IMG/VR virus record: IMGVR_UViG_2541047595_000015
DNA from: a virus
Taxonomy: Duplodnaviria; Heunggongvirae; Uroviricota; Caudoviricetes
Direction: 5' to 3' (one strand)
DNA: 35,633 nt
Below, one piece after another: positions 1-30,575 of the stretch. The notes beneath the pieces are model-generated. The model was not told the origin of the DNA and made no database searches. It saw only the letters and a program-made list of their open reading frames with translations. Every line of letters starts with the position of its first letter. Within the stretch, counting starts at the first letter, position 1. Both the position numbers and the translations under genes were made by a program.

Positions 1-1110
1 TCCGGTAAAATAAGGCAACCGATCTGCTGCAGTGGCAAGTCCTGCCAGAGCAGTGAGCGTGGCATCTGCCGGTTGTTTTCCGTTTGCCAGATCGTATGCA
101 GCCTTGACCGCTTTCGGTGTGGCGGCCAGTATTTCAGACGTGCTGTTGATGGCACTGCTCAATTGTATGGTGCCTTTTGCCGTCAGCGAGGCAGCAGGCA
201 CTCCCGTTATCTGACTCCACGGGTGAGTGTGGCTGACGGGCGCCTTGCCGGCTGCAAGGTCGTATGCAGCCTTGACCGCCTTCGGCGTGGCAGCCTCAGT
301 TTCTGATTGACTGTCCGTGGCGCTGCTCAGTTGTACGGTGCCTTTTGCCGTCAGCGAGGCAGCAGGCACTCCCGTTATCTGACTCCACGGGTGAGTGTGG
401 CTGACGGGGGCCTTGCCGGCAGCCAGGTCATATGCAGCCTTGACGGCCTTTGGTGTGGCGGCCAGCGTTTCAGAGGTGCTGTTGGTGGCACTGCTCAGTT
501 GTACGATCCCTTTACGGGTCGTTGTTGCATCCTGGGCTGTGTATTTTCCCCGGGCCAGATCATACGCGATTTTCACAGCCTTCGGCGTGGCAGCCTCAGT
601 TTCTGATTGACTGTCCGTGGCGCTGCTCAGTTGTACGGTGCCTTTTGCCGTCAGCGAGGCAGCAGGCACTCCCGTTATCTGACTCCACGGGTGAGTGTGG
701 CTGACGGGGGCCTTGCCGGCAGCCAGGTCATATGCAGCCTTGACGGCCTTTGGTGTGGCGGCCAGCGTTTCAGAGGTGCTGTTGGTGGCACTGCTCAGTT
801 GTACGATCCCTTTACGGGTCGTTGTTGCATCCTGGGCTGTGTATTTTCCCCGGGCCAGATCATACGCGATTTTCACAGCCTTCGGCGTTTCAGCCTCAGT
901 TTCTGATTGACTGTCCGTGGCACTGCTCAGCTGTACGGTGCCTTTTGCCGTCAGCGAGGCAGCAGGCACTCCCGTTATCTGACTCCACGGGTGAGTGTGA
1001 CTGACGGGTGCCTTGCCGGCTGCAAGGTCGTATGCAGCCTTGACGGCTTTTGGTGTGGCGGCCAGCGTTTCAGAGGTGCTGTTGGTGGCACTGCTCAGTT
1101 GGGTGAACCC
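1..1110. repeat. Tandem ~300-bp repeats (two ~150-bp half-units each) inside the tail-fibre gene
   Basis: Units 307-606 and 607-906 are identical except 2 nt on direct comparison; 907-~1110 and 1-306 are diverged or partial copies. Plus-strand ORF-track entries 307..606 and 607..906 give identical 99-aa antisense translations, an artefact of the repeat. Confidence 0.85.
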
Positions 1111-3398: not shown

Positions 3399-3995
3399 TC
3401 AGTGGGAGTGGTGGCTGGAGTTTTCGCCATCAGACAACATACTGCCCGTGGCATGGGCATTCCCTTTAATCTCGATATTGCCATGGATGGTCGCGGTAAC
3501 ACCTTCACCACCAGAACCCGCCATGCCTCCTTCGTAAATCAGCTTACCCCTGACACGCAGATCTCCGGTAAGTTCGGTTTCCGGTGCGTCAATCGTGGCT
3601 TTCTGTGTTTTCAATACCACATCAGCACCACACTCAATGACAATATGCTCAATGCCGCCCCGGATGATCAGAGTGTGCGTCTTCCGGTTGTAGCTGTACT
3701 CTGCACCATCAGCAAACCGGGTTCCCCGGATATTTTTGTCACTGAACGGTGGTTTATCGACGTCTGAATACACCGCGCCCAGAATAACACCATCCTCGCC
3801 GTTGGCATCGAGCAGCACCTCAACCTGCTCCCCCACGTCAGGGAGCCAGTAATCTTTGTTATCCTGGGTATTGCGCTGCAGCACGTTAAGCCAGTTTGTG
3901 CGCAGGTTATCGCATTCAGGCAGACGAACGCGGGCCTGAACCCTGTCGGCATCAACGGCACTGACCGTACCGACCTGACGAGTGACACCAGTCAT
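3399..3995 (-). CDS. Baseplate spike / assembly protein V (P2 gpV, Mu gp45-like)
   Basis: 198 aa; glycine-rich C-terminal region; located between the D-like and W-like genes. Confidence 0.65.
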   Translation of the reverse strand: MTGVTRQVGTVSAVDADRVQARVRLPECDNLRTNWLNVLQRNTQDNKDYWLPDVGEQVEVLLDANGEDGVILGAVYSDVDKPPFSDKNIRGTRFADGAEYSYNRKTHTLIIRGGIEHIVIECGADVVLKTQKATIDAPETELTGDLRVRGKLIYEGGMAGSGGEGVTATIHGNIEIKGNAHATGSMLSDGENSSHHSH

Positions 3996-5164
3996 TTTTT
4001 CTTCTCTCTTATTACTGTGGACGTGCTGCCGTCCGGTTTATAGATGGTCAGCATCCGGGTTTTGCCGATTTTTTTACCTTTCTTCGCCTTGCCCTGTGTG
4101 ATCGGCCCCCGTGCCACTTCCAGCTCTGTGGTGTAGCCGCTGTTACGGTCAAACGCATGGCGGGCAGTGGTTATGAGCCATGGCCCGGATAACTGCCCAA
4201 AACCCACCAGTTCAATTTTGTTGCCTGCTGTCAGTTGAGGTGTTCCCGTCAGCGTCAGGGAGCCGTTCTGCTGGTATTCGTTATGTCTGGCCAGTGCTGA
4301 ATCCGCTTTAATCCGGGCACTGTCCGGGTCGCTGACGCGGCTGTTAACTTTAAGTGAGTCAGCGCTGGTAACCTTACCACCTTTGAGCTTTTTGTCGCTT
4401 TCACGGGTACCACCATCAGCTTCGTAGACGATCAGTTTTTTACTGCTGCTTTTCTGGTGTTTTACCTTTGCAGATTTATAGACCCGGTTGATGGTGTCAC
4501 GCAGGGAAAAGCGGGCCACATCCTGCGGTTTTAACTGCCTGACCGGCTCCTGACTGCGCAGTGTGGCCAGATGAGAAAAAATCAGCTGGTCACTGACCAC
4601 TTTCACTGCATAACCATACTCGCTGGCCAGCCGGCGCAGAAAACCCACGTCGGTTTCAGCATACTGGGTCACCCGGTCGATTCTGATGGACTCAATGCTG
4701 CCCACCAGTTTCAGCCGGTGCTTTCTGGCAATCCGCCCCGCAACAGCTGCCAGCGTGGTGTTCTCAAAACCACGACTGGTTTTAGTCCGCAGGGCACTGT
4801 TAACCGAGGTGGCCACCCCACGGATAGAAACAACGGAAGCGGGCGAACTCACTTCGATCTCGTCTATAGAGAACGTACCGCAGGACAGCAGCTTCTCGTC
4901 CTGATAGCCCATTTTCAGCGTCAGCGTGTCACCCTTGCCCGGATACCACTTATCCAGCCAGCGGCCATCGGTGTCGTCCAGCTCCACCTCAATGGTATCG
5001 GACTCATTTTTGATGTTATCGCTCCAGGTCACACGGGTGACATAAGGCGCGATATCAGAGGTGATGTTTTTCTGCAGATACCACAGAGTGAACACCGGTG
5101 TCAGCACATCGCTGACGCCGGTTAACGCTGATGTGACTTGCGCAGTGCTGTTTATCTCAGCCAT
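3992..5164 (-). CDS. Tail protein D (late control gene D / Mu P-like baseplate hub)
   Basis: 390 aa; lysine-rich C-terminus; conserved position between X and V; 4-nt overlap with the downstream gene. Confidence 0.7.
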   Translation of the reverse strand: MAEINSTAQVTSALTGVSDVLTPVFTLWYLQKNITSDIAPYVTRVTWSDNIKNESDTIEVELDDTDGRWLDKWYPGKGDTLTLKMGYQDEKLLSCGTFSIDEIEVSSPASVVSIRGVATSVNSALRTKTSRGFENTTLAAVAGRIARKHRLKLVGSIESIRIDRVTQYAETDVGFLRRLASEYGYAVKVVSDQLIFSHLATLRSQEPVRQLKPQDVARFSLRDTINRVYKSAKVKHQKSSSKKLIVYEADGGTRESDKKLKGGKVTSADSLKVNSRVSDPDSARIKADSALARHNEYQQNGSLTLTGTPQLTAGNKIELVGFGQLSGPWLITTARHAFDRNSGYTTELEVARGPITQGKAKKGKKIGKTRMLTIYKPDGSTSTVIREKKK

Positions 5165-5367
5165 GGGGCAATATCCTCTTCTGTACGGGCTTCTTCAGCC
5201 TCAATCACCGGGATCAGTAACAACAGCCCGGAGGGCAGCACCGGCGTGATGGCCACGTGCGGATTGGCGGCAATAATCCGGGGATAGCCCAGCGGGTCAC
5301 CGTAGTACTGCCATGCCAGCGAATCCCAGCGCTCTCCGTCACGGGTAACATGTTCAAGAAACATCAC
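5152..5367 (-). CDS. Tail protein X (P2 gpX-like)
   Basis: 71 aa with the ERWDSLAWQYYGD motif typical of the tail protein X family. Confidence 0.7.
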   Translation of the reverse strand: MMFLEHVTRDGERWDSLAWQYYGDPLGYPRIIAANPHVAITPVLPSGLLLLIPVIEAEEARTEEDIAPWLR

Positions 5368-6248
5368 ACACTCCTCGTCAGTATTCTGGCGGCCATTGCA
5401 CTTAATCCCGGAGACATGCGGTTGAATGCTGTTCCGACGGCGTTAAGCTGCCCGGAAACGGTATCCAGAGCACCTGCAATATTTCTTTTGTCCACACCAC
5501 TCAGCGCAGACTGTGCCTGCTGTACATACGTGGCTGCTTCGCTGGCTGTTCTGGCCAGACTGATGGCATCGGGCATGGATTCAGAGAGTGCGTTAAACGC
5601 CGGAACACTTTTCCCCAGAGCCCCGGAGATATTACCCAGTCCGCTCATCAGCCCCGGCACACGGGTCAGTGCGACAACGGGGTTATCCTTCATTTTCTGT
5701 GTCACTCGAACGGCGCTGATAGTGGTCTGGAGTACAGACTGCGCCTGTTTCGCATAGTTGACGCCGTTGCGGATGAACTGCGCCACCCCGGAAGGTGAAG
5801 GAATGGCACCGGAGACCGCCCCGACACCCGGGAGCTTCGTGCGTATTGCCGGTGGTTGCAGAGGATTTTTCGGGTCACCGGTGTATTCCCGGAGAGACAC
5901 GGTGGCACTGACAGCCAGCACGTTGCCGGTACTGTCAGTCTGCTCGCTGGTTGCAGTCACATCGGTAATCACGAACCAGCCGCGATAGTCACCGTTGCCG
6001 AAGACCAGCGCCAGTGCCTGATGGGCTTTCATGGCTGTTCGCAGTCTCGCCAGCTCCACATCGGGTACACAATAATGCTGATGGAAAACCAGAGTTATCT
6101 GGATTTCGTCCAGCCTGTCGCCGACGAACTGCAGGCCAGGCTTACCCCCGATGCGGGCATGCTCCGCATAATCGACGCCGAACGTGGCCTCGAAGCCGTC
6201 CCAGTAGGTAATCAGCTCAAACTCAATATCACCCAGTACGGCAAACAT
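5364..6248 (-). CDS. Tail protein, gpU-like / DNA-circularisation-like
   Basis: 294 aa; directly downstream of the tape measure gene as in P2 (T-U-D); the N-terminus resembles tail protein U. Assignment is positional plus weak similarity. Confidence 0.5.
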   Translation of the reverse strand: MFAVLGDIEFELITYWDGFEATFGVDYAEHARIGGKPGLQFVGDRLDEIQITLVFHQHYCVPDVELARLRTAMKAHQALALVFGNGDYRGWFVITDVTATSEQTDSTGNVLAVSATVSLREYTGDPKNPLQPPAIRTKLPGVGAVSGAIPSPSGVAQFIRNGVNYAKQAQSVLQTTISAVRVTQKMKDNPVVALTRVPGLMSGLGNISGALGKSVPAFNALSESMPDAISLARTASEAATYVQQAQSALSGVDKRNIAGALDTVSGQLNAVGTAFNRMSPGLSAMAARILTRSV

Positions 6249-9200
6249 CAGCGGTACTCCTTACGTTGTTTCTGAGCCAGCAGACGCTCCAGCATTTTTT
6301 CCAGCTCATGCAGACTCATATTCAGGGCACCAGTCAGTCCTGCAGGCGCTGTGGTTTCCCTGCCATTGAGGAAAAACTGAGGATTAAAGCTGACCTGGAT
6401 ACCACCAGACGTTCCACCGCCGGTTGCAGCTGCACCACGGCCTGAATATCCGGCAGCCAGGATTTCAGGCGAGGGGATACGGGGAACATCCGGTGTCATC
6501 TCATTTGCCAGACGTTGCCCTGGTAAAATCGATGCCCGGGTGGAGAGCGGAATAACGGGCATGGAAGACAAACTATTGATTACGGCTCCGATCGCATTTT
6601 TAGCAGACGACATAAACCCATTGATATCGGGCAACGGCATACTGAAGCGAACACCTGAAGTGTTATCCCGTATTTCTGGCCCCTGAATGCTCACGGGCAT
6701 TCTGGGGAGCAGTTCACTGGCCATTCGCTGCCCGGCCAGAGCTGCAAGCGGAGTGGTCCGCTGCAGGCCAATGGCGGCCCCCTGCGCGATATTGTCACCA
6801 AAGCCCATAAACACGCGGCTCGGCGAATGAATGCCCAGCTTTTCGCTGAACCAGCCACTGATGCTGTCACCCATTCCGGTTACACTGGATTTGAGCGACT
6901 CCCATTTGTTTTTGATACCGTTAATCAGACCGTCGACAAGATGGCCACCGAAGTCGGTGAACTTTGCCGGCAGATCAACACCAAGATATTTCAGCGCAGC
7001 TGCAAAGGCTTTATAGAGCAGACCTGCCGGCGACCAGTTAATCAGCAGCTTACCAGTTCCCGCGATACCGCCGTTAAAGGCTTCCTGAATGTCAGCCCAG
7101 CACTGTTTAAACCAGCTACTGATGCTGTCACCCATTCCGGTTACACTGGATTTGAGCGACCCCCATTTGTTTTTGATACCGTTAATCAGACCGTCGATAA
7201 GATGGCCACCGAAGTCGGTGAACTTTGCCGGCAGAGCAACGCCGAAATATTTCAGCGCAGCCGCAAAGGCTTTATAGAGCAGGCCTGCCGGCGACCAGTT
7301 AATCAGCAACTTACCAATTCCCACAATTCCGCCGTTAAAGGCTTCCTGAATGTCAGCCCAGCGCTGTTTAAACCAGCTACTGATGCTGTCACCCATTCCG
7401 GTTACACTGGATTTGAGCGACCCCCATTTGCTTTTGATACCGTTAATCAGACCGTCGATAAGATGGCCACCGAAGTCGGTGAACTTTGCCGGCAGAGCAA
7501 CGCCGAAATATTTCAGCGCAGCCGCAAAGGCTTTATAGAGCAGGCCTGCCGGCGACCAGTTAATCAGCAACTTACCAATTCCCACAATGCCGCCGTTAAA
7601 GGCTTCCTGAATGTCAGCCCAGCGCTGTTTAAACCAACCACTGACAGCCCCCCAGTTGCGGTAGATAAGGTAAGCTGCTGTCGCGACAGCGGTGATAACG
7701 AGACCGATGGGATTCATCATCAGCGCTCGCCCAATCCAGAGAACGGCACGTGCAGCGCTCATAAAACCGCGAACGAGGCTGCCCGCCAGAACTTTGCTGA
7801 GTTTCAGTCCTCCGCTGGTCAGTCGGCTGAATCCAGTGACAAGCCAGCGTAATTTGCCACCTTCTCCGAGTGCGGTAGTCAGTCGATGCCAGTTGGTCCG
7901 GAGTAAAACAGTAGTTTTCCAGACGTTCACAAAGGGGGAAATAAGGAGATTCAGCCCCAGTTTGAGACCAATAGTCGCTATCTTAATCGCAAGGAGCGCA
8001 CTGATGAGCTTAAAAGCCCCACTGACAAATTGCGGGTGAGTCGCTACCCAGTGTTTTGTCCCCTGAATGAGTGGGAGCAGTTCCTGAGTCAGAGAAATAA
8101 AAGATGGAGCTAATTGATCGCCCAGCGTAATTGCCAGATCGCGACTGCTGACCATAAGTGTTTTAGTGGCTTCAAGGGGAGATTTCAGCCGCTGATCATA
8201 AGCACTGGCAAGCAAATCGTTATCCGCAGCCCTGAGAGCACCGGCACGGATCTCTCGATATCTGTCCATGTTGGCCAGCATCGGGCGGATAAATGCCATG
8301 ACCTGCATATCCGCGAACATATCGCCCAGACCAAAGTTTTTCGCCAGAGCCTGAAGTGCCTCATCTCTTGCCGTATCATTCTTTATTTTCATGGCTGATT
8401 TGAAGCCGGCCAGCGCTTCGGGGCTTTTGGCATTGAGGTAACGTTCTATAACACTCAACATCCCTTCAATCGGAGAGATCCCCGCAGCTTTATAACTCGC
8501 AATAGATCCCTGCAAATCAATACCCAGATCAGCAAACTGTTTCTGAGTATCGCGGGCAAAAATTTTGGTAAGAAAGTTTTTAAAATTATTGGCTGCTTCG
8601 TCGGTGGAACCTGCACCGATTTTTGCTATCTGGAGACTGGCCCCGATTTCAGCAACAGCCTCTTTTCCACTGGCAAGACCCGCCATCATTGGGGCCAGGG
8701 ACTGCATCCACTTGACCTGATCCGGGATTTCAAATGACCCCTGGTCACCGGCATAAGCCATAATATTCTGAACGGCACCAAAATCTCTGGCCGCACCTTT
8801 CAGGGAGTTTTGCCAGACTGCGGCCACTTTTGCCCAGTCCTGAGCAGACGTGCGTGTTGCCGTTGCCGCGCGGGCAATATCCGGCATCAGAAAACCGATA
8901 TCTGACACATTATCAATATTGTCGCTGATGAGTGAACCCACCGCCTCCTGCAGCTCATCCTGATACTGATTGTATTTAAGCGCCCAGCCTTTTATCTGTC
9001 CGGCAAGTGCATCCCGCGTTTTATTGTCATATTTTGCGGTGATCGACATATCAATCATTTTGTCCTGAAAAGACATGGACTGCTGAACGGCAGGGGAAAC
9101 CGTATGATAAACAGTCTGTGCCATGCCATACGCTTCAATCCCCTGACCATACAGCGCCATGCGGTTAGCTTTCAGCGCATCACTGGTAGCGGATGCCGCT

Positions 9201-9460
9201 GACAGACGGCGCTGCTGGCGCTCAATTTGCTCCATGGTGCGGCTTACCCGCAGCAGCTCGCTGTTGAGATGCTGCATCCGGGAAGAACCCAGTTGACCAT
9301 AACGTTCTGTTGCACGGGTTAAAGCGTTCTGACGTTCCTGCAGGCGGCGTGAGGTATCGCTCAGGGAATCAAGCGCACGGCGGGTACCGCTCATTGCAGA
9401 ACGGAATGTGCTGCCAATCATCCCGCCGATAACAACGCCGACTGAAAACTGTCCCGACAT
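6248..9460 (-). CDS. Tail tape measure protein
   Basis: 1070 aa; largest gene of the tail module, after the chaperone pair; GGAGG 10 nt upstream of the ATG at 9460; contains three tandem 87-aa repeats. Confidence 0.85.
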   Translation of the reverse strand: MSGQFSVGVVIGGMIGSTFRSAMSGTRRALDSLSDTSRRLQERQNALTRATERYGQLGSSRMQHLNSELLRVSRTMEQIERQQRRLSAASATSDALKANRMALYGQGIEAYGMAQTVYHTVSPAVQQSMSFQDKMIDMSITAKYDNKTRDALAGQIKGWALKYNQYQDELQEAVGSLISDNIDNVSDIGFLMPDIARAATATRTSAQDWAKVAAVWQNSLKGAARDFGAVQNIMAYAGDQGSFEIPDQVKWMQSLAPMMAGLASGKEAVAEIGASLQIAKIGAGSTDEAANNFKNFLTKIFARDTQKQFADLGIDLQGSIASYKAAGISPIEGMLSVIERYLNAKSPEALAGFKSAMKIKNDTARDEALQALAKNFGLGDMFADMQVMAFIRPMLANMDRYREIRAGALRAADNDLLASAYDQRLKSPLEATKTLMVSSRDLAITLGDQLAPSFISLTQELLPLIQGTKHWVATHPQFVSGAFKLISALLAIKIATIGLKLGLNLLISPFVNVWKTTVLLRTNWHRLTTALGEGGKLRWLVTGFSRLTSGGLKLSKVLAGSLVRGFMSAARAVLWIGRALMMNPIGLVITAVATAAYLIYRNWGAVSGWFKQRWADIQEAFNGGIVGIGKLLINWSPAGLLYKAFAAALKYFGVALPAKFTDFGGHLIDGLINGIKSKWGSLKSSVTGMGDSISSWFKQRWADIQEAFNGGIVGIGKLLINWSPAGLLYKAFAAALKYFGVALPAKFTDFGGHLIDGLINGIKNKWGSLKSSVTGMGDSISSWFKQCWADIQEAFNGGIAGTGKLLINWSPAGLLYKAFAAALKYLGVDLPAKFTDFGGHLVDGLINGIKNKWESLKSSVTGMGDSISGWFSEKLGIHSPSRVFMGFGDNIAQGAAIGLQRTTPLAALAGQRMASELLPRMPVSIQGPEIRDNTSGVRFSMPLPDINGFMSSAKNAIGAVINSLSSMPVIPLSTRASILPGQRLANEMTPDVPRIPSPEILAAGYSGRGAAATGGGTSGGIQVSFNPQFFLNGRETTAPAGLTGALNMSLHELEKMLERLLAQKQRKEYR
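6850..7636. repeat. Three tandem ~261-bp repeats inside the tape measure gene
   Basis: The segment WFKQRWADIQEAFNGGIVGIGKLLINWSPAGLLYKAFAAALKYFGVALPAKFTDFGGHLIDGLINGIK.KWGSLKSSVTGMGDSIS occurs three times in the TMP. Antisense plus-strand ORFs at 6831, 7089 and 7350 are spaced 258-261 nt apart with near-identical translations. Confidence 0.85.
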
Positions 9461-9535: not shown

Positions 9536-9793
9536 CTATGATTTGTCGCCGTACTCGCTTTTGATTTGCTCTTCAGCCTGCTCCAGCCACATCTCCAGAT
9601 CGTCAGTATCGAGGGCATCAATCTCCCCCGGCTGAAACCGGAACCATCTCGCCAGCAGCCCCTGCGCCTGCGTCAGCGCCCTGGTTGCTCTCACCCATCC
9701 CCGTGATGAGCTGAAATCGTTTCTGTAACTGCAGGTAATCAGCCAGATCCATATTGTCGAGATCTTCCGGGAGAAGACCAGTACTGCGGGCAA
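9536..9793 (-). CDS. Overlapping second-frame ORF, likely the frameshift extension of the tail assembly chaperone
   Basis: ORF in another frame overlapping the 3' part of the chaperone ORF, with an acidic C-terminus (EIDALDTDDLEMWLEQAEEQIKSEYGDKS). This is the conserved two-frame arrangement upstream of tape measure genes. Confidence 0.45.
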   Translation of the reverse strand: MPAVLVFSRKISTIWIWLITCSYRNDFSSSRGWVRATRALTQAQGLLARWFRFQPGEIDALDTDDLEMWLEQAEEQIKSEYGDKS

Positions 9794-9953
9794 TCAGCGG
9801 TTCGTCCCAGTCTGCCGGGTTTTTGCTGATTTTGCGCACCTGCTTCAGGTCTTTTACCGTCAGGCGTTTCAGTTCAACCAGCTCAATTCTGGTGCCTGCA
9901 GCAGTGGTGAAGGGATAAGACAATTTAAAAGTATCGGATGGGGTCTGTGACAT
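9618..9953 (-). CDS. Tail assembly chaperone (P2 gpE-like), upstream frame
   Basis: 111 aa; GGAG upstream of the ATG at 9953; position between tube and tape measure. Confidence 0.6.
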   Translation of the reverse strand: MSQTPSDTFKLSYPFTTAAGTRIELVELKRLTVKDLKQVRKISKNPADWDEPLIARSTGLLPEDLDNMDLADYLQLQKRFQLITGMGESNQGADAGAGAAGEMVPVSAGGD

Positions 9954-10334: not shown

Positions 10335-10856
10335 TCAGCCCCCGATATTGATACGGTAGTCAGTCAGTTGATCAACACCGCCGACCCGGAAGATGTTGGC
10401 CAGATAGTCCAGTTGCAGCAGCTCTTCACCATCCAGTACCTGTCTGATATACGTGCAGGTGAAGCTACTGGAGAACTCGGCGTTCTCGTGCTGTTTGAAC
10501 GTCCCCAGCGGGTTCTTCTTGAACATAATCGTCAGGAAGGTGACCAGCGGGATTTCGTCAATCAGCCCCTGCGAGCTGTAGCGCTGGACGCTGGAACGAC
10601 ACTGCAGTGCCAGCGACCTGTACGGGTTCGCGGCAGACAGCATCGCATCGCGGTAAAAGCTGTTCCATTTGATTTCGCCTTCCAGCTTGTCAAAACCAGC
10701 CGGGAGTTCCACCTTACCCACCATCCCCAGCGCCTTGTGTTCCTGCATAATCATGGAGACATCGGGGAGTTTGACTTCCTCAGCCCGTCCCAGCAGGTTA
10801 GTACCATCCAGATAGATGTTGGCATTCGTGATGCGGTTTATCTCAATCTTTGACAT
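10335..10856 (-). CDS. Tail tube protein (P2 FII-like)
   Basis: 173 aa, directly downstream of the sheath gene; size and sequence character of the major tube protein. Confidence 0.8.
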   Translation of the reverse strand: MSKIEINRITNANIYLDGTNLLGRAEEVKLPDVSMIMQEHKALGMVGKVELPAGFDKLEGEIKWNSFYRDAMLSAANPYRSLALQCRSSVQRYSSQGLIDEIPLVTFLTIMFKKNPLGTFKQHENAEFSSSFTCTYIRQVLDGEELLQLDYLANIFRVGGVDQLTDYRINIGG

Positions 10857-12283
10857 CAGTTGCCCCCTTTCAGGGTTAACAGGTATTCCGAGGTGATCTC
10901 AGTCTCAAACGTCAGTCGCTCCAGCGGCGGTGGTGGCGTATATTTGTAGCTCAGCAACAGGTGCCCGGCGGCCAGCTCCGTCTCCGGATTGCGGGCCGGA
11001 TCAAACCAGCAACGGAAGCCCAGTACCGCACCATCACCAGTCATTTTGCGACCGTAGGCGTTGACCGACTCCGTCAGTGCATCAATCAGCGCCTGAGTAA
11101 TCGGCATGTCGATGTACTGCTGGCTGAAATAACGAATGGACTCGTTGATCACATCACCGGTGCGGCGAACGTTCTCAAAGTTACGCATATGGGTGACCGT
11201 TGGCCATGCTGCCGTCCGGTTACCCCACAGACGAAGGCCGCTGCCGTAACTGCTGAATACCGTGGTGATCCCCTGTTCGTTAAGCAGGTTCACCTCACTC
11301 TGCGGGTCATCAATCATCGCGGACAGCTGGCGCTCCACGCCGGTGATCCCCAGAATCTCCTGATTGGAGGATGACCACCAGTAGCCCTTGTCCAGATCGA
11401 CTCTGGCACGCAGACCTGCTGCACGCTGGCTGAGCGGCTCCAGACGCTCTGTGTTTGTCACCGGGTCATATACCTTCACATGCGGATAGCACAGACGGAC
11501 GCGGTCGGAGCTGGTATTGAAGTTGATGGTGCCTTCCGGGCCACGACCTGCCAGAGCCTGTGCAAAGGTGGTACCGACAGGCGCATCAATGTAGGTTACC
11601 GCGCCCAGCTTCTCTGCCATGGCGATAAGCTCAACTGCGACACTCTTCTGGGTGCAGAACACCGGCGCAATCAGAATTTTGGCGAAATAGCCGTACAGGT
11701 TGAAGCTGTCGTTAAGCAGCTTCATGCCGGTTCGGTTTCCGGCGCTGTTCACCCCGCCGATGATGTCCGCCGCAGCCACCTTCGACGGGTCCGCGTACTC
11801 ATAGCTCACCTTCACGCTGCCACCGGCCTCAATAGCCTTGCCCAGGTTCGTGAGCACACCCGCCTGCGCATCAACACGGTAGTCCGTGTTCGCCGTGTGG
11901 GTGGTGCTGCCTTCACTGTTTTTCACCACCACATTAGCGACAACCGGATGCGCCAGTCTGGCCTGCCCTGTCGATTTGTCAAAGGTAACCACCTCATCCT
12001 CGATCGCCGTTTTATGTTTCGCCGGGTCGAGGACGTTAATGACCAGAACGGTGCCTGCACCATGGTCATAAATCGCATCCAGCGCCTGCGGAATGGTAAA
12101 GCCGGTGAACTGGCTGCCAAATGCCGCTGCGTCTTTCTCAGACAGGCACTGTACCAGCGTATTGACATCCCCCATCGGGGCGGTACCAATCAGGCCAATA
12201 ACGGCAGATTTCACCGTTTTAACCGGGCGGGCTCCGTTTTCCACCTCAATGGTTTCGGGACCATGCAGATAGTTAGCTGCCAT
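10856..12283 (-). CDS. Contractile tail sheath protein (P2 FI / Mu L-like)
   Basis: 475 aa; position and size; sheath-tube gene pair. Confidence 0.85.
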   Translation of the reverse strand: MAANYLHGPETIEVENGARPVKTVKSAVIGLIGTAPMGDVNTLVQCLSEKDAAAFGSQFTGFTIPQALDAIYDHGAGTVLVINVLDPAKHKTAIEDEVVTFDKSTGQARLAHPVVANVVVKNSEGSTTHTANTDYRVDAQAGVLTNLGKAIEAGGSVKVSYEYADPSKVAAADIIGGVNSAGNRTGMKLLNDSFNLYGYFAKILIAPVFCTQKSVAVELIAMAEKLGAVTYIDAPVGTTFAQALAGRGPEGTINFNTSSDRVRLCYPHVKVYDPVTNTERLEPLSQRAAGLRARVDLDKGYWWSSSNQEILGITGVERQLSAMIDDPQSEVNLLNEQGITTVFSSYGSGLRLWGNRTAAWPTVTHMRNFENVRRTGDVINESIRYFSQQYIDMPITQALIDALTESVNAYGRKMTGDGAVLGFRCWFDPARNPETELAAGHLLLSYKYTPPPPLERLTFETEITSEYLLTLKGGN

Positions 12284-27628: not shown

Positions 27629-29398
27629 ATGAATGCTGCCCTGACTGAACGACTGGTTTATGTCGCCCGCGCGGCACGTGACGCGGGGCATGGTAAACGC
27701 GGTGCAATATACGACGCTGCCTGTGCTGAACTTGGCATGTCCCGCGCCACTCTGCTGCGCAGGCTGAAGGAGGTCTCTGTGACTGATAAACGCAAAAAAC
27801 GCGCTGATGCCGGACGCAGCGCCCTGACCCGCGACGAAGCCGCGCTGATATCTGCCACACTGCGTGAGGCCACCCGCAAGAACGGTAAACGCCTCTATTC
27901 CATCGCAGATGCAGTGGAAACCCTGCGGGCTAACGGCTTTATCACCGCAGGCAGAACAGATGAAACCACCGGTGAGTTTTTCCCGTTGTCTGAAGATGCC
28001 ATCAGCCGTGCTCTGCGTAACTATGGCCTGCACCCGGAACAACTGGATGCTCCTGCACCGCATACCGAAGTGGCCAGTCTGCACCCCAATCATGTCTGGC
28101 AGATTGACGCCTCACTCTGCACGCTTTACTACCTGAGCAATGGACATAAAGGGCTGCAGGTGATGGACAGCGCGAAGTTCTACAAGAACAAGCCCGCTAA
28201 CCTTGCCCGTATCGCCAGTGACCGCGTGTGGAGTTACGAGATTACCGACCATGCCAGCGGCTGGATTTACGTTGAGTATGTGACGGGCGCGGAATCAGGT
28301 GAGAACCTGTGTTCTGTGCTTATCAACGCCATGCAGGAGCGTGGCGGCGCAGACGTGCTGCACGGCGTGCCAAAAATACTCTATCTCGACCCCGGCTCGG
28401 CAAACACCGCGGGTATGACGAAAAACATGTGCCGCTCACTGGGCATCGACCTGATAGCGCACAAGCCGCATAACGCCCGCGCCACCGGACAGGTGGAAAA
28501 GGCGCGGGACATTATCGAACGCAAGCTGGAGCCGGGTCTGAAGTTCCGGCCGGTTCACAGTCTGGAAGAACTCAATGCGCTGGCCGCGAAATGGCGCAGC
28601 CACTTTAACGCCACGGCTGTTCACAGCCGCCACGGTAAAACCCGCACGGATATCTGGCTGAAGATTACTGCTGAGCAGCTGAAAAAAGCGCCTTCCGTTG
28701 AGGTATGTCGTGAACTGGCTGTGGCGGCACCAGAACTCCGCAAAGTCACGCCAAAACTTCGTGTCTCGTTCCGGGGCACTGAATTTGACGTATCAACGGT
28801 ACCGGGCGTACTGGTCGGTGAAAAACTGATGATTACCCGTAACCCGTGGCGCAGCGATGTGGCACAGGTGGTTCTGACCGGTGAGGACGGCCACGAGACG
28901 TTCTTCCTGGTCGAAGAAGTCAGAAAGAACGAGTTTGGCTTTGCTGAAGGCGCGGCGGTATTTGGCGAAAGTTACAAAGCCCTGCCGGAAACCCCGGCGC
29001 AGATGGCGGCAAAAGAAACCGAAGCGCTGGTCACCGGTACAGACAACGCCGCAGATGCAGCTGCCGCACGCAAGGCGAAGGCGCTGCCGTTCGGCGGGCG
29101 GCTTGACCCATATAAACATATTGATGACGCCACACTTCCGGCCTATATGCCGAAGCGAGGTCAGGCCTCTGACGTACGCGGGCCGCGCACTGAACAACGT
29201 CCCATGACTCATGTGGAGGCCGCGAAAGCCCTGCGCGATAAGTTCAGCGCCGACGGCCTTACCTGGACGCCGGAACATTACCGCCAGTTAACGGCACAGT
29301 ATCCGGACGGCGTACCGGAAGCCGCACTGGATGAAGTCATGGCCACGCTGACCACGCCGGCCCGCAGCAGCGTTATCAGCATTGTTAACGGCAACTGA
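27629..29398 (+). CDS. Transposase (rve/DDE integrase-core type, Mu A functional analogue)
   Basis: 589 aa; N-terminal HTH-like region; HVWQIDAS... integrase-core-like motif; followed by a translationally coupled AAA+ ATPase gene, the A-B pair of transposable phages. Confidence 0.8.
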   Translation: MNAALTERLVYVARAARDAGHGKRGAIYDAACAELGMSRATLLRRLKEVSVTDKRKKRADAGRSALTRDEAALISATLREATRKNGKRLYSIADAVETLRANGFITAGRTDETTGEFFPLSEDAISRALRNYGLHPEQLDAPAPHTEVASLHPNHVWQIDASLCTLYYLSNGHKGLQVMDSAKFYKNKPANLARIASDRVWSYEITDHASGWIYVEYVTGAESGENLCSVLINAMQERGGADVLHGVPKILYLDPGSANTAGMTKNMCRSLGIDLIAHKPHNARATGQVEKARDIIERKLEPGLKFRPVHSLEELNALAAKWRSHFNATAVHSRHGKTRTDIWLKITAEQLKKAPSVEVCRELAVAAPELRKVTPKLRVSFRGTEFDVSTVPGVLVGEKLMITRNPWRSDVAQVVLTGEDGHETFFLVEEVRKNEFGFAEGAAVFGESYKALPETPAQMAAKETEALVTGTDNAADAAAARKAKALPFGGRLDPYKHIDDATLPAYMPKRGQASDVRGPRTEQRPMTHVEAAKALRDKFSADGLTWTPEHYRQLTAQYPDGVPEAALDEVMATLTTPARSSVISIVNGN

Positions 29399-29408
29399 GG
29401 AGGGATAC

Positions 29409-30575
29409 ATGCTGGTACTGAAGCAGCAACTGAAAGAGGCCCGTATTCCACAGGCGGTGGTGGCGAGAGCTGTCGATGTTTCTGAGGCCACGCTGGCCCA
29501 GATTGTGAATCATAACGCGTGGCCCCGCACCAGCCCCGGAGAAGTGCGCCGGCGTCTTGCGTCCTGGCTGGAAAGTCAGGGGATTGATACAACGAAGAGT
29601 TTTGATGCTGTACAGGGCGCGGCCACGCCCCGTACAGCGGGTACCACAGATAAAACGAGCCTCAGTGAGGAAGAGAATATGTTACTCAAAAAACAGGTGT
29701 TATTTCCAGCAACCAAAAAAGCGTTTGGTCTTTTCCGTGACCCGTTCGCCGACGAAGCCATGCAGGGTTCTGATGATGTGTTCACCACTCCGGACATTCG
29801 CTACGTGCGTGAGGCGCTGTACCAGACAGCCCGTCATGGTGGGTTTATGGCCGTCATCGGTGAGTCCGGTGCGGGTAAATCCACGCTGCGCCGTGACCTG
29901 ACTGAACGTATCAACCGCGAGAATGCGCCGGTGATTGTTATCGAGCCATACATCATCGCTATGGAAGACAACGATGTGAAAGGGAAAACCCTGAAGGCAG
30001 CAGCGATTGCCGAAGCCATTATCAGTACCATCGCACCACTGGAAAGCATCAGACGCAGTCAGGACGCCCGCTTTCGCCAGCTGCATCGCGTCCTGAAAGA
30101 CAGCAGCCAGGCGGGGTTCAGCCACGTTCTGGTGATTGAGGAGGCCCACAGTCTGCCCATTCCGACACTGAAACACCTCAAACGCTTTTTTGAGCTGGAG
30201 TCCGGTTTCAAAAAACTGCTGTCCATCGTGCTGATTGGCCAGCCGGAACTGGCGACAAAACTGTCTGAACGCAATATGGAAGTCCGTGAAGTCGTTCAGC
30301 GCTGTGAGGTGGTCGAACTTCTGCCTCTGGACAATAACCTTGAAGAGTTTCTGACGTTCAAACTGCAACGGGCCGGTAAACAACTGACGGACATTATGGA
30401 CGCCAGCGCAGTGGATGCCATACGTGCCCGCCTGAGCAATCCGGGAAGTCATCGTAAAAATATGGTCAGCCTGCTGTATCCGCTGGCCGTCAGTAACCTG
30501 GTAATAGCCGCCATGAATCTGGCCGCTGAAATCGGGGTTCCACAGGTCAACGCTGACGTTGTCAAAGGGGTTTAA
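29409..30575 (+). CDS. Transposition ATPase (MuB/TniB-like AAA+)
   Basis: Start at the ATG at 29409 with GAGGAGGG RBS; Walker A GESGAGKST; N-terminal HTH-like segment; follows the transposase. Confidence 0.8.
   Translation: MLVLKQQLKEARIPQAVVARAVDVSEATLAQIVNHNAWPRTSPGEVRRRLASWLESQGIDTTKSFDAVQGAATPRTAGTTDKTSLSEEENMLLKKQVLFPATKKAFGLFRDPFADEAMQGSDDVFTTPDIRYVREALYQTARHGGFMAVIGESGAGKSTLRRDLTERINRENAPVIVIEPYIIAMEDNDVKGKTLKAAAIAEAIISTIAPLESIRRSQDARFRQLHRVLKDSSQAGFSHVLVIEEAHSLPIPTLKHLKRFFELESGFKKLLSIVLIGQPELATKLSERNMEVREVVQRCEVVELLPLDNNLEEFLTFKLQRAGKQLTDIMDASAVDAIRARLSNPGSHRKNMVSLLYPLAVSNLVIAAMNLAAEIGVPQVNADVVKGV

Follow-up and report, generated by a model that had tools for sequence, protein, structure and literature searches.

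A tandem array of 87-residue units varies in copy number in the tape measure gene of a Mu-like Escherichia coli prophage

The stretch of DNA analyzed here (IMG/VR record IMGVR_UViG_2541047595_000015, Caudoviricetes; 35,633 nucleotides (nt), referred to as the window) carries an apparently intact Mu-like prophage of Escherichia coli. We found that the gene for the tape measure protein (TMP) of this prophage contains three consecutive, near-identical units of 87 codons, and that its relatives in other E. coli genomes carry one, two or three of them. The interpretation that we consider likely is that the units recombine, that TMP alleles with one to three units coexist and that each unit lengthens the tail by approximately 13-15 nm.

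Three in-frame units in the tape measure gene

Tandem Repeats Finder detected the array at positions 6849-7644 with a period of 261 nt, 3.0 copies, 96% matches, 0% indels and a score of 1459; 261 nt is the sole period given for the array. A second repeat search returned 274-nt copies at 6849-7122, 7110-7383 and 7371-7644, which are spaced by 261 nt and are 93-95% identical to the reference copy. The unit corresponds to 87 codons and lies in frame within a minus-strand open reading frame (ORF) at 6248-9460, which encodes 1070 amino acids (aa). In-frame unit boundaries were set by the spacing of the WF motif, which is 87 aa (Table 1). The original prediction had placed three consecutive near-identical units of 261 bp (87 aa) at 6850-7636, and both the repeat searches and the frame of the ORF showed that these coordinates and this unit size are correct.

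Over 261 nt, units 1 and 2 differ at 2 positions and unit 3 differs from either of them at 15-16. Two unit types 15-16 nt apart can be distinguished, type A (first-position) and type B (last-position), and the window reads A-A-B. Unit 3 is an exact match to the last unit of a two-copy allele (L005) and of a three-copy allele (L006). It is followed by the first 5 nt of a partial unit (6849-6853), and at the opposite end of the array homology with the unit ends extends 8 nt upstream of unit 1 (7637-7644). The unit is fairly hydrophobic and glycine-rich, with tryptophans at unit positions 1, 6, 27 and 71 and without a regular 11-residue aromatic periodicity. A search for older, degenerate unit copies elsewhere in the window TMP gave none above shuffled controls (z 0.1 and 1.1). 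The triplication did not arise from assembly of the window, since the 3213-bp TMP gene recurs with 100% identity in no fewer than 27 independent complete E. coli genomes.

Within the TMP, PF10145 matches aa 159-340 with 74.6 bits (cut-off 33.2) and TIGR01760 matches aa 119-493 with 59.8 bits (cut-off 28.8). The protein is also matched by PHROG 28 (E 2e-135), PHROG 794 and others, all of which are named 'tail length tape measure protein'. Pfam, NCBIfam, PHROGs and the gene order described below all agree with the earlier assignment of this ORF as the TMP gene. A plus-strand ORF at 6827-7852 was considered as a real gene and rejected: its Pfam scores only sum the three repeats without an individually significant stretch, and the ratio of nonsynonymous to synonymous divergence (dN/dS) is higher in its frame than in the TMP frame, which marks it as an antisense by-product of the repeat.

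Unit number among relatives

All counts were obtained from RefSeq assemblies at the complete-genome level. Matches to the TMP gene occur in 636 of the 5,426 complete E. coli genomes searched, and the prophage family is present in about 12% of such genomes, including sequence type 131 (ST131). The matched spans are 3213, 2952 or 2691 bp, corresponding to three, two or one units, and the alleles that were fetched encode intact proteins of 1070, 983 and 896 aa, respectively; the ORF was intact in 10 of the 10 alleles translated. With a single unit as query, 1473 unit copies were detected in 629 genomes (mean 2.34, median 2 and maximum 9 per genome). One copy was present in 6 genomes of a 60-genome sample, two copies in 35, three in 14 and four to five in 5; four of the six one-copy genomes belong to a diverged sister lineage. 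Three genomes with four to five copies (AVS0196, p11B and B771) were inspected, and each contains two related prophages with their own two- or three-unit TMP gene. A four-unit array was found neither in these three genomes nor, as a 1157-aa protein, among the 120 best-scoring protein clusters. The range observed for a single array is one to three units, two being the commonest. Distinct unit patterns in the 120 best clusters number at least 12 for three-unit, more than 20 for two-unit and 7 for one-unit proteins. The number of units is not invariant across the family, as had been considered possible when the array was first described: among relatives with 96-100% identity it is one, two or three.

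Totals of 4-9 unit copies occur in some E. coli genomes, and the three inspected show that more than one phage of this family can be present in a genome. A simple-sequence contingency locus (phase variation) was also considered and rejected, since the unit is 261 nt long (3 x 87) and every allele is in frame and full length; the size of the product varies, not its on/off state. A singleton TMP of 1084 aa (P0001, one NCBI contig of 22.8 kb) combines a two-unit allele with another in-frame duplication of approximately 101 aa (EGGKLRW...GTGKLL), which extends over the second hydrophobic segment as well as the beginning of unit 1. This allele may be real or the result of misassembly.

The three-unit genes of L006 (301-3513), L014 (1373-4585) and L017 (11809-15021) each translate as one intact 1070-codon ORF; RefSeq/PGAP calls one or two 'incomplete' pseudogene pieces at these loci. 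The repeat appears to mislead homology-based annotation of three-unit genes. In Escherichia phage PhiKM (PQ738613), the only deposited phage genome that is more than 95% identical, positions 3853-3952 inside the array are 100 N and the TMP is split into two coding sequence features.

Chimeric units on three backgrounds

Units of 261 bp that are 94-99% identical offer substrates on which unequal homologous recombination or replication slippage would act. Whole units would thereby be added or removed repeatedly with the reading frame kept, which would be how the TMP alleles of 896, 983 and 1070 aa came to coexist in the phage population. We compared alleles that share a background, defined by the 2430 nt of the TMP gene outside the array. 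Background I comprises the window (three units) and L005 (two units, A-B), with 0 flank differences; unit 1 of L005 consists of the 5' part of window unit 1 and the 3' part of window unit 2. Background II comprises L004 (two units) and L002 (one unit), again with 0 flank differences, and the single unit of L002 is an exact fusion of the 5' end of L004 unit 1 with what remains, on the 3' side, of L004 unit 2. L006 (three units) and L003 (one unit) form background III, with flank differences of 10 nt. Here the middle unit of L006 is type B at its 5' end and type A at its 3' end, and the single unit of L003 has an A 5' end and a B 3' end, with a breakpoint other than that of L006. The L006 middle unit is what unequal crossing-over in an A-B array should leave as its reciprocal product. 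Chimeric units whose breakpoints differ occur on three backgrounds, each with flanks that are identical or nearly so, and they point to no fewer than three independent events of unit gain or loss, in both directions, that bear the signatures of unequal homologous recombination, or slippage.

Copy-number differences of this kind could also be artefacts, generated when assemblers collapse or expand a near-identical tandem repeat. Collapse would likewise yield a chimeric unit, the PhiKM array is interrupted by its gap, and several 896-aa proteins are known only from Logan short-read assemblies. However, the middle unit of L006 is an expansion chimera, which collapse cannot create, and the whole array is just 783 bp, a length easily spanned by single long reads. 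The counts all come from complete genomes, in which the three-unit gene is 100% identical in at least 27 cases and two-unit genes occur in hundreds, and a sister lineage (L007, Klebsiella phage KP12, 821 aa) carries a single unit with a sequence of its own. We regard it as extremely unlikely that the differences in unit number arose during assembly.

A further difference between alleles lies just upstream of the array. A patch of ~170 nt (window ~7760-7928; gene nt 1532-1700; aa ~511-570) in L003 and L006 contains ~60 differences to the window, and the rest of the TMP gene is nearly identical between them. This patch looks like a mosaic piece imported by recombination.

Age and maintenance of the units

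Synonymous divergence (dS) is 0.017 between units 1 and 2 and 0.128 between types A and B. Judged by these values the array is two-tiered in age, the A/B split being older than the divergence of the allele backgrounds. The recent duplication that had been proposed from the high identity of the units therefore holds for units 1 and 2, whereas unit 3 split off much earlier; in addition, the data show losses of units as well as gains. Between units, dN/dS is ~0.3 in the TMP frame.

The sister lineage is ~88% identical and includes an E. coli member, L007, whose 821-aa TMP contains a single unit of distinct sequence. The same lineage includes Klebsiella phage KP12 clone KP12_2 (OM835952), which is 85-86% identical and has a TMP of the same length, 821 aa. 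This lineage is single-copy, and its sequences suggest that one copy is the ancestral state.

Unit 2 was used as query for a wider search and detected 604 TMP cluster representatives at E <=1e-3. Among the best 150, 91 representatives are full-length, and 24 of these contain two to four tandem or near-tandem copies of the module. In these distant TMPs the copies recur with periods of 55-156 aa, and identity between copies of the same protein is 35-74%. Because distant TMPs hold two to four diverged copies, duplication of the module is ancient and recurrent, and multi-copy states have been kept for a long time under selection. A Pfam search showed no family of its own for the unit. A sequence search of the PDB gave only a weak match to residues 489-577 of the TMP of Brochothrix phage NF5 (E 7.6e-5); this region is located upstream of residues 648-674, which the NF5 authors modelled at the tip of the tail lumen, and falls in the part not resolved by them (PMC12917162).

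Expected effect on tail length

The tail tube protein polymerises around the TMP. In the mechanism proposed here the TMP would fill the lumen of the tail tube and stop the polymerisation of tube and sheath, and each unit would account for ~13-15 nm (87 aa x 0.15-0.17 nm per residue), which would be roughly three to four rings of tube and sheath or ~9% of the tail length. Tail length thus probably differs between relatives with one, two and three units; the size of the step per unit is inferred from other phages. Length-ruler experiments were reportedly carried out on lambda gpH by Katsura and Hendrix in 1984 and on the TP901-1 TMP by Pedersen in 2000, and work on T4 gp29 by Abuladze and coworkers from 1994 is said to show that the ruler principle holds for contractile tails too. 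In other phages it is established that the length of the TMP determines that of the tail. With engineered in-frame deletions in the TP901-1 TMP, the tails became shorter step by step, from 118 down to 65 nm (PMC5099701). For conversion, 0.15 nm per aa has served as a working ratio (PMC9928086), and the transposable myovirus KS10, with a TMP of 811 aa and a tail of ~140 nm (PMC2628397), gives 0.17 nm per residue.

The outcome would be different if the copy number varies in a module outside the length-determining stretch, for instance a compact fold, a part of the baseplate hub or a membrane channel formed after ejection. In that case the length of the tail would hardly change, or not proportionally. 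Two hydrophobic segments directly precede the unit, which is itself fairly hydrophobic and glycine-rich, TMPs have been reported to serve as a DNA conduit (as cited in PMC8616913 and PMC12917162), and helical hairpins are conceivable from the predicted structure: a single-sequence AlphaFold2 (AF2) model of aa 571-897 is almost wholly helical, with each unit split into helices and a loop at LPAKFTDFG, at a mean predicted local distance difference test (pLDDT) score of only 44.6 (poor). In TP901-1, however, loss of even the transmembrane-like Tm2-3 region shortens the tail from 118 to 107.6 nm, and deletions in the central and C-terminal repeat regions shorten it in proportion (PMC5099701). The tip plug of NF5 is touched by the last 27 TMP residues only, with the unit-like region 489-577 located upstream (PMC12917162), and the array of the window is not the hub-binding terminus because ~200 residues follow it. 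A position of the units outside the length-determining stretch is, in our view, unlikely.

Several points nevertheless weigh against the interpretation favoured here. The tail-length effect is an extrapolation from lambda, TP901-1 and T4, and with a model as poor as the present one (pLDDT 44.6) an extended helical conformation of the units is not established. The unit adjoins hydrophobic segments and may also have a role in ejection or as a channel. Collapse of short reads could inflate the one-unit count in draft assemblies, the 100 N in the PhiKM array being a case in point, and the unit frequencies come from two evenly spaced samples of 60 rows, consistent with the mean of 2.34 per genome.

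A more far-reaching interpretation would see the array as a selected tail-length dial. Frequent RecA-type gain and loss of units would allow a lysogen population to release two or three discrete tail lengths, matched to the depth of capsule or O-antigen, and the three-unit ceiling and the dominance of two units would be due to selection, not chance. This appears quite improbable to us.

The prophage and its tail module

Because of its gene set and its identity to PhiKM, the element is, as judged from its sequence, an intact-looking Bcepmuvirus-like transposable (Mu-like) myovirus prophage of E. coli; the Bcepmuvirus placement follows the classification of the PhiKM record. Other genes of the window encode baseplate and head proteins, a protease, the portal, both terminase subunits, endolysin, spanin, transposase and a transposition protein. 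Positions 9461-34000 of the window are 98.0% identical to PhiKM (PQ738613) across 90%. Six genomes contain the prophage at six different insertion sites, namely by barA, in yeiB, by fdrA, in cbtA, by aroA and in ssuB, and one-, two- and three-unit prophages are all present among these independent insertions. Since the six sites in six genomes differ and three of them are within host genes, repeated recent transposition or lysogenisation is indicated. In the host, yeiB, cbtA and ssuB are each cut short where they meet the prophage.

These data also bear on the question whether unit number drifts neutrally in decaying, non-functional prophages whose TMP is without selection. In favour of such drift, the chaperone gene next to the TMP gene carries an internal-stop flag in the one-unit genome MLI114. 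Drift is nonetheless very improbable: all ten translated TMP alleles are open, dN/dS is ~0.3, the set of structural, lysis and transposition genes is complete, three of the six insertions interrupt host genes, and a phage record in GenBank, PhiKM, is 98% identical over 90% of the region compared. A non-inducible or defective prophage had been named as a possibility in the original prediction; with the full gene complement, the six insertion sites and the deposited 98% identical phage, the family instead looks active.

Genes for sheath, tube, chaperone and TMP are followed by homologues of gpU, gpX and gpD, and the RefSeq annotation gives the same order (Table 1). An 85-codon ORF in another frame (9536-9793) overlaps the gpE-type chaperone gene (9618-9953), an arrangement that we take to be that of the programmed E/E' frameshift conserved ahead of TMP genes.

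Table 1. Coordinates of the units, the tape measure gene and other features. Positions refer to the window unless a relative is named.
Feature	Position	Strand	Evidence or remark
Unit 1, type A	7376..7636	-	aa 609-695; 2 nt from unit 2
Unit 2, type A	7115..7375	-	aa 696-782; translation and unit comparison
Unit 3, type B	6854..7114	-	aa 783-869; 15-16 nt and 8-9 aa away from both other units
Tape measure protein gene, 1070 aa	6248..9460	-	ORF translation, PF10145, TIGR01760, PHROGs, RefSeq annotation of identical sequence
Hydrophobic segment aa 572-600, bordering the array on its upstream side	7661..7747	-	Kyte-Doolittle 19-residue window >1.5
Hydrophobic segment aa 477-508	7937..8032	-	Kyte-Doolittle 19-residue window >1.5
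Contractile tail sheath protein	10856..12283	-	PF04984 and PF17482
Tail tube protein	10335..10856	-	PF04985, E 2.9e-53
Tail assembly chaperone, gpE-like, adjoining the TMP gene upstream	9618..9953	-	PF10109 Phage_TAC_7, E 5.5e-21
gpU-like tail protein, adjoining the TMP gene downstream	5364..6248	-	PF06995, E 7.4e-39
gpD-like	3992-5164		beyond the gpU-like gene in tail-module order
Transposase	27629-29398	+	Mu-type, PHROG 310
DNA transposition protein	29382-30575	+	PHROG 296
Prophage left-end region in relatives	L009 3241-4530; L010 2479-3952; L012 1162-2004; L017 2384-3872		

A second near-identical tandem repeat is located in the tail fibre gene (window 85-1101), a minus-strand ORF that leaves the window at its left end. 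Tandem Repeats Finder gives a period of 300 nt with 2.7 copies and 98%, nested with a period of 168 nt, and the translation contains seven Pfam Phage_fiber_2 repeats; the length of the fibre may also vary by whole units. In relatives (L009, L010, L012 and L017), the prophage end lies just past the point where the window stops on the left, with a gene of the recombinase family (invertase-like) and oppositely oriented tail-fibre C-terminal genes, a layout that resembles the Mu G segment.

Discussion

The principle proposed here is a known one and not a new mechanism; what sets this case apart from those described are the 87-aa unit, the near-identical DNA copies, the contractile Mu-like E. coli phage and the clear population evidence for repeated recent changes. 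As for lambda gpH and the TP901-1 TMP, an in-frame gain or loss in the TMP is expected to change tail length proportionally. Those systems are engineered siphovirus mutants, whereas the alleles described here are natural ones of a contractile-tailed Mu-like prophage, known from sequence. For T4 gp29, we are not aware that a natural polymorphism in tandem units has been reported.

According to a proposal by Mahony et al. (2016; PMC5099701), duplication and deletion are made easier by repeats. Belcaid et al. (2011; PMC3271669) described 11-residue TMP repeats marked by W/F, which are duplicated and lost among related prophages. Their prophages and the present family share tandem repeats in TMP genes, a number that differs among close prophages (in our family with flanks 96-100% identical) and a distinction of duplication from loss by unit comparison. 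The units of Belcaid et al. are short, degenerate and mostly from phages of Firmicutes, whereas the present unit has 87 aa, is near-identical at the DNA level and belongs to a Gram-negative myovirus; its length is not a multiple of 11, and neither an 11-aa nor an 11-11-18 W/F period is seen in it. In 2026, Moreno-Rodriguez et al. (PMC13585406) surveyed 45,500 TMPs for tandem repeats and homorepeats; they list tandem repeats among the contributors to TMP length variation, find them uncommon in myovirus TMPs and give their absence as the characteristic of this group. The myovirus array of the window falls in this minority class, and copy-number polymorphism within a lineage was outside the scope of that survey. 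PhiKM is the same type of phage as the window, with an array that holds 100 N; no paper on PhiKM or on a TMP repeat polymorphism in E. coli was found in a search covering part of the literature.

The array has practical consequences for annotation, since short-read phage assemblies break at it, as in PhiKM, and PGAP mislabels three-unit genes; functional prophages can therefore look defective. If the proposed phenotype is true, the family would provide a natural allelic series of one, two and three units for the length of a contractile tail, in which two allele pairs are flank-identical. Such a series would also allow us to ask whether tail length affects the infection of encapsulated clinical E. 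coli.

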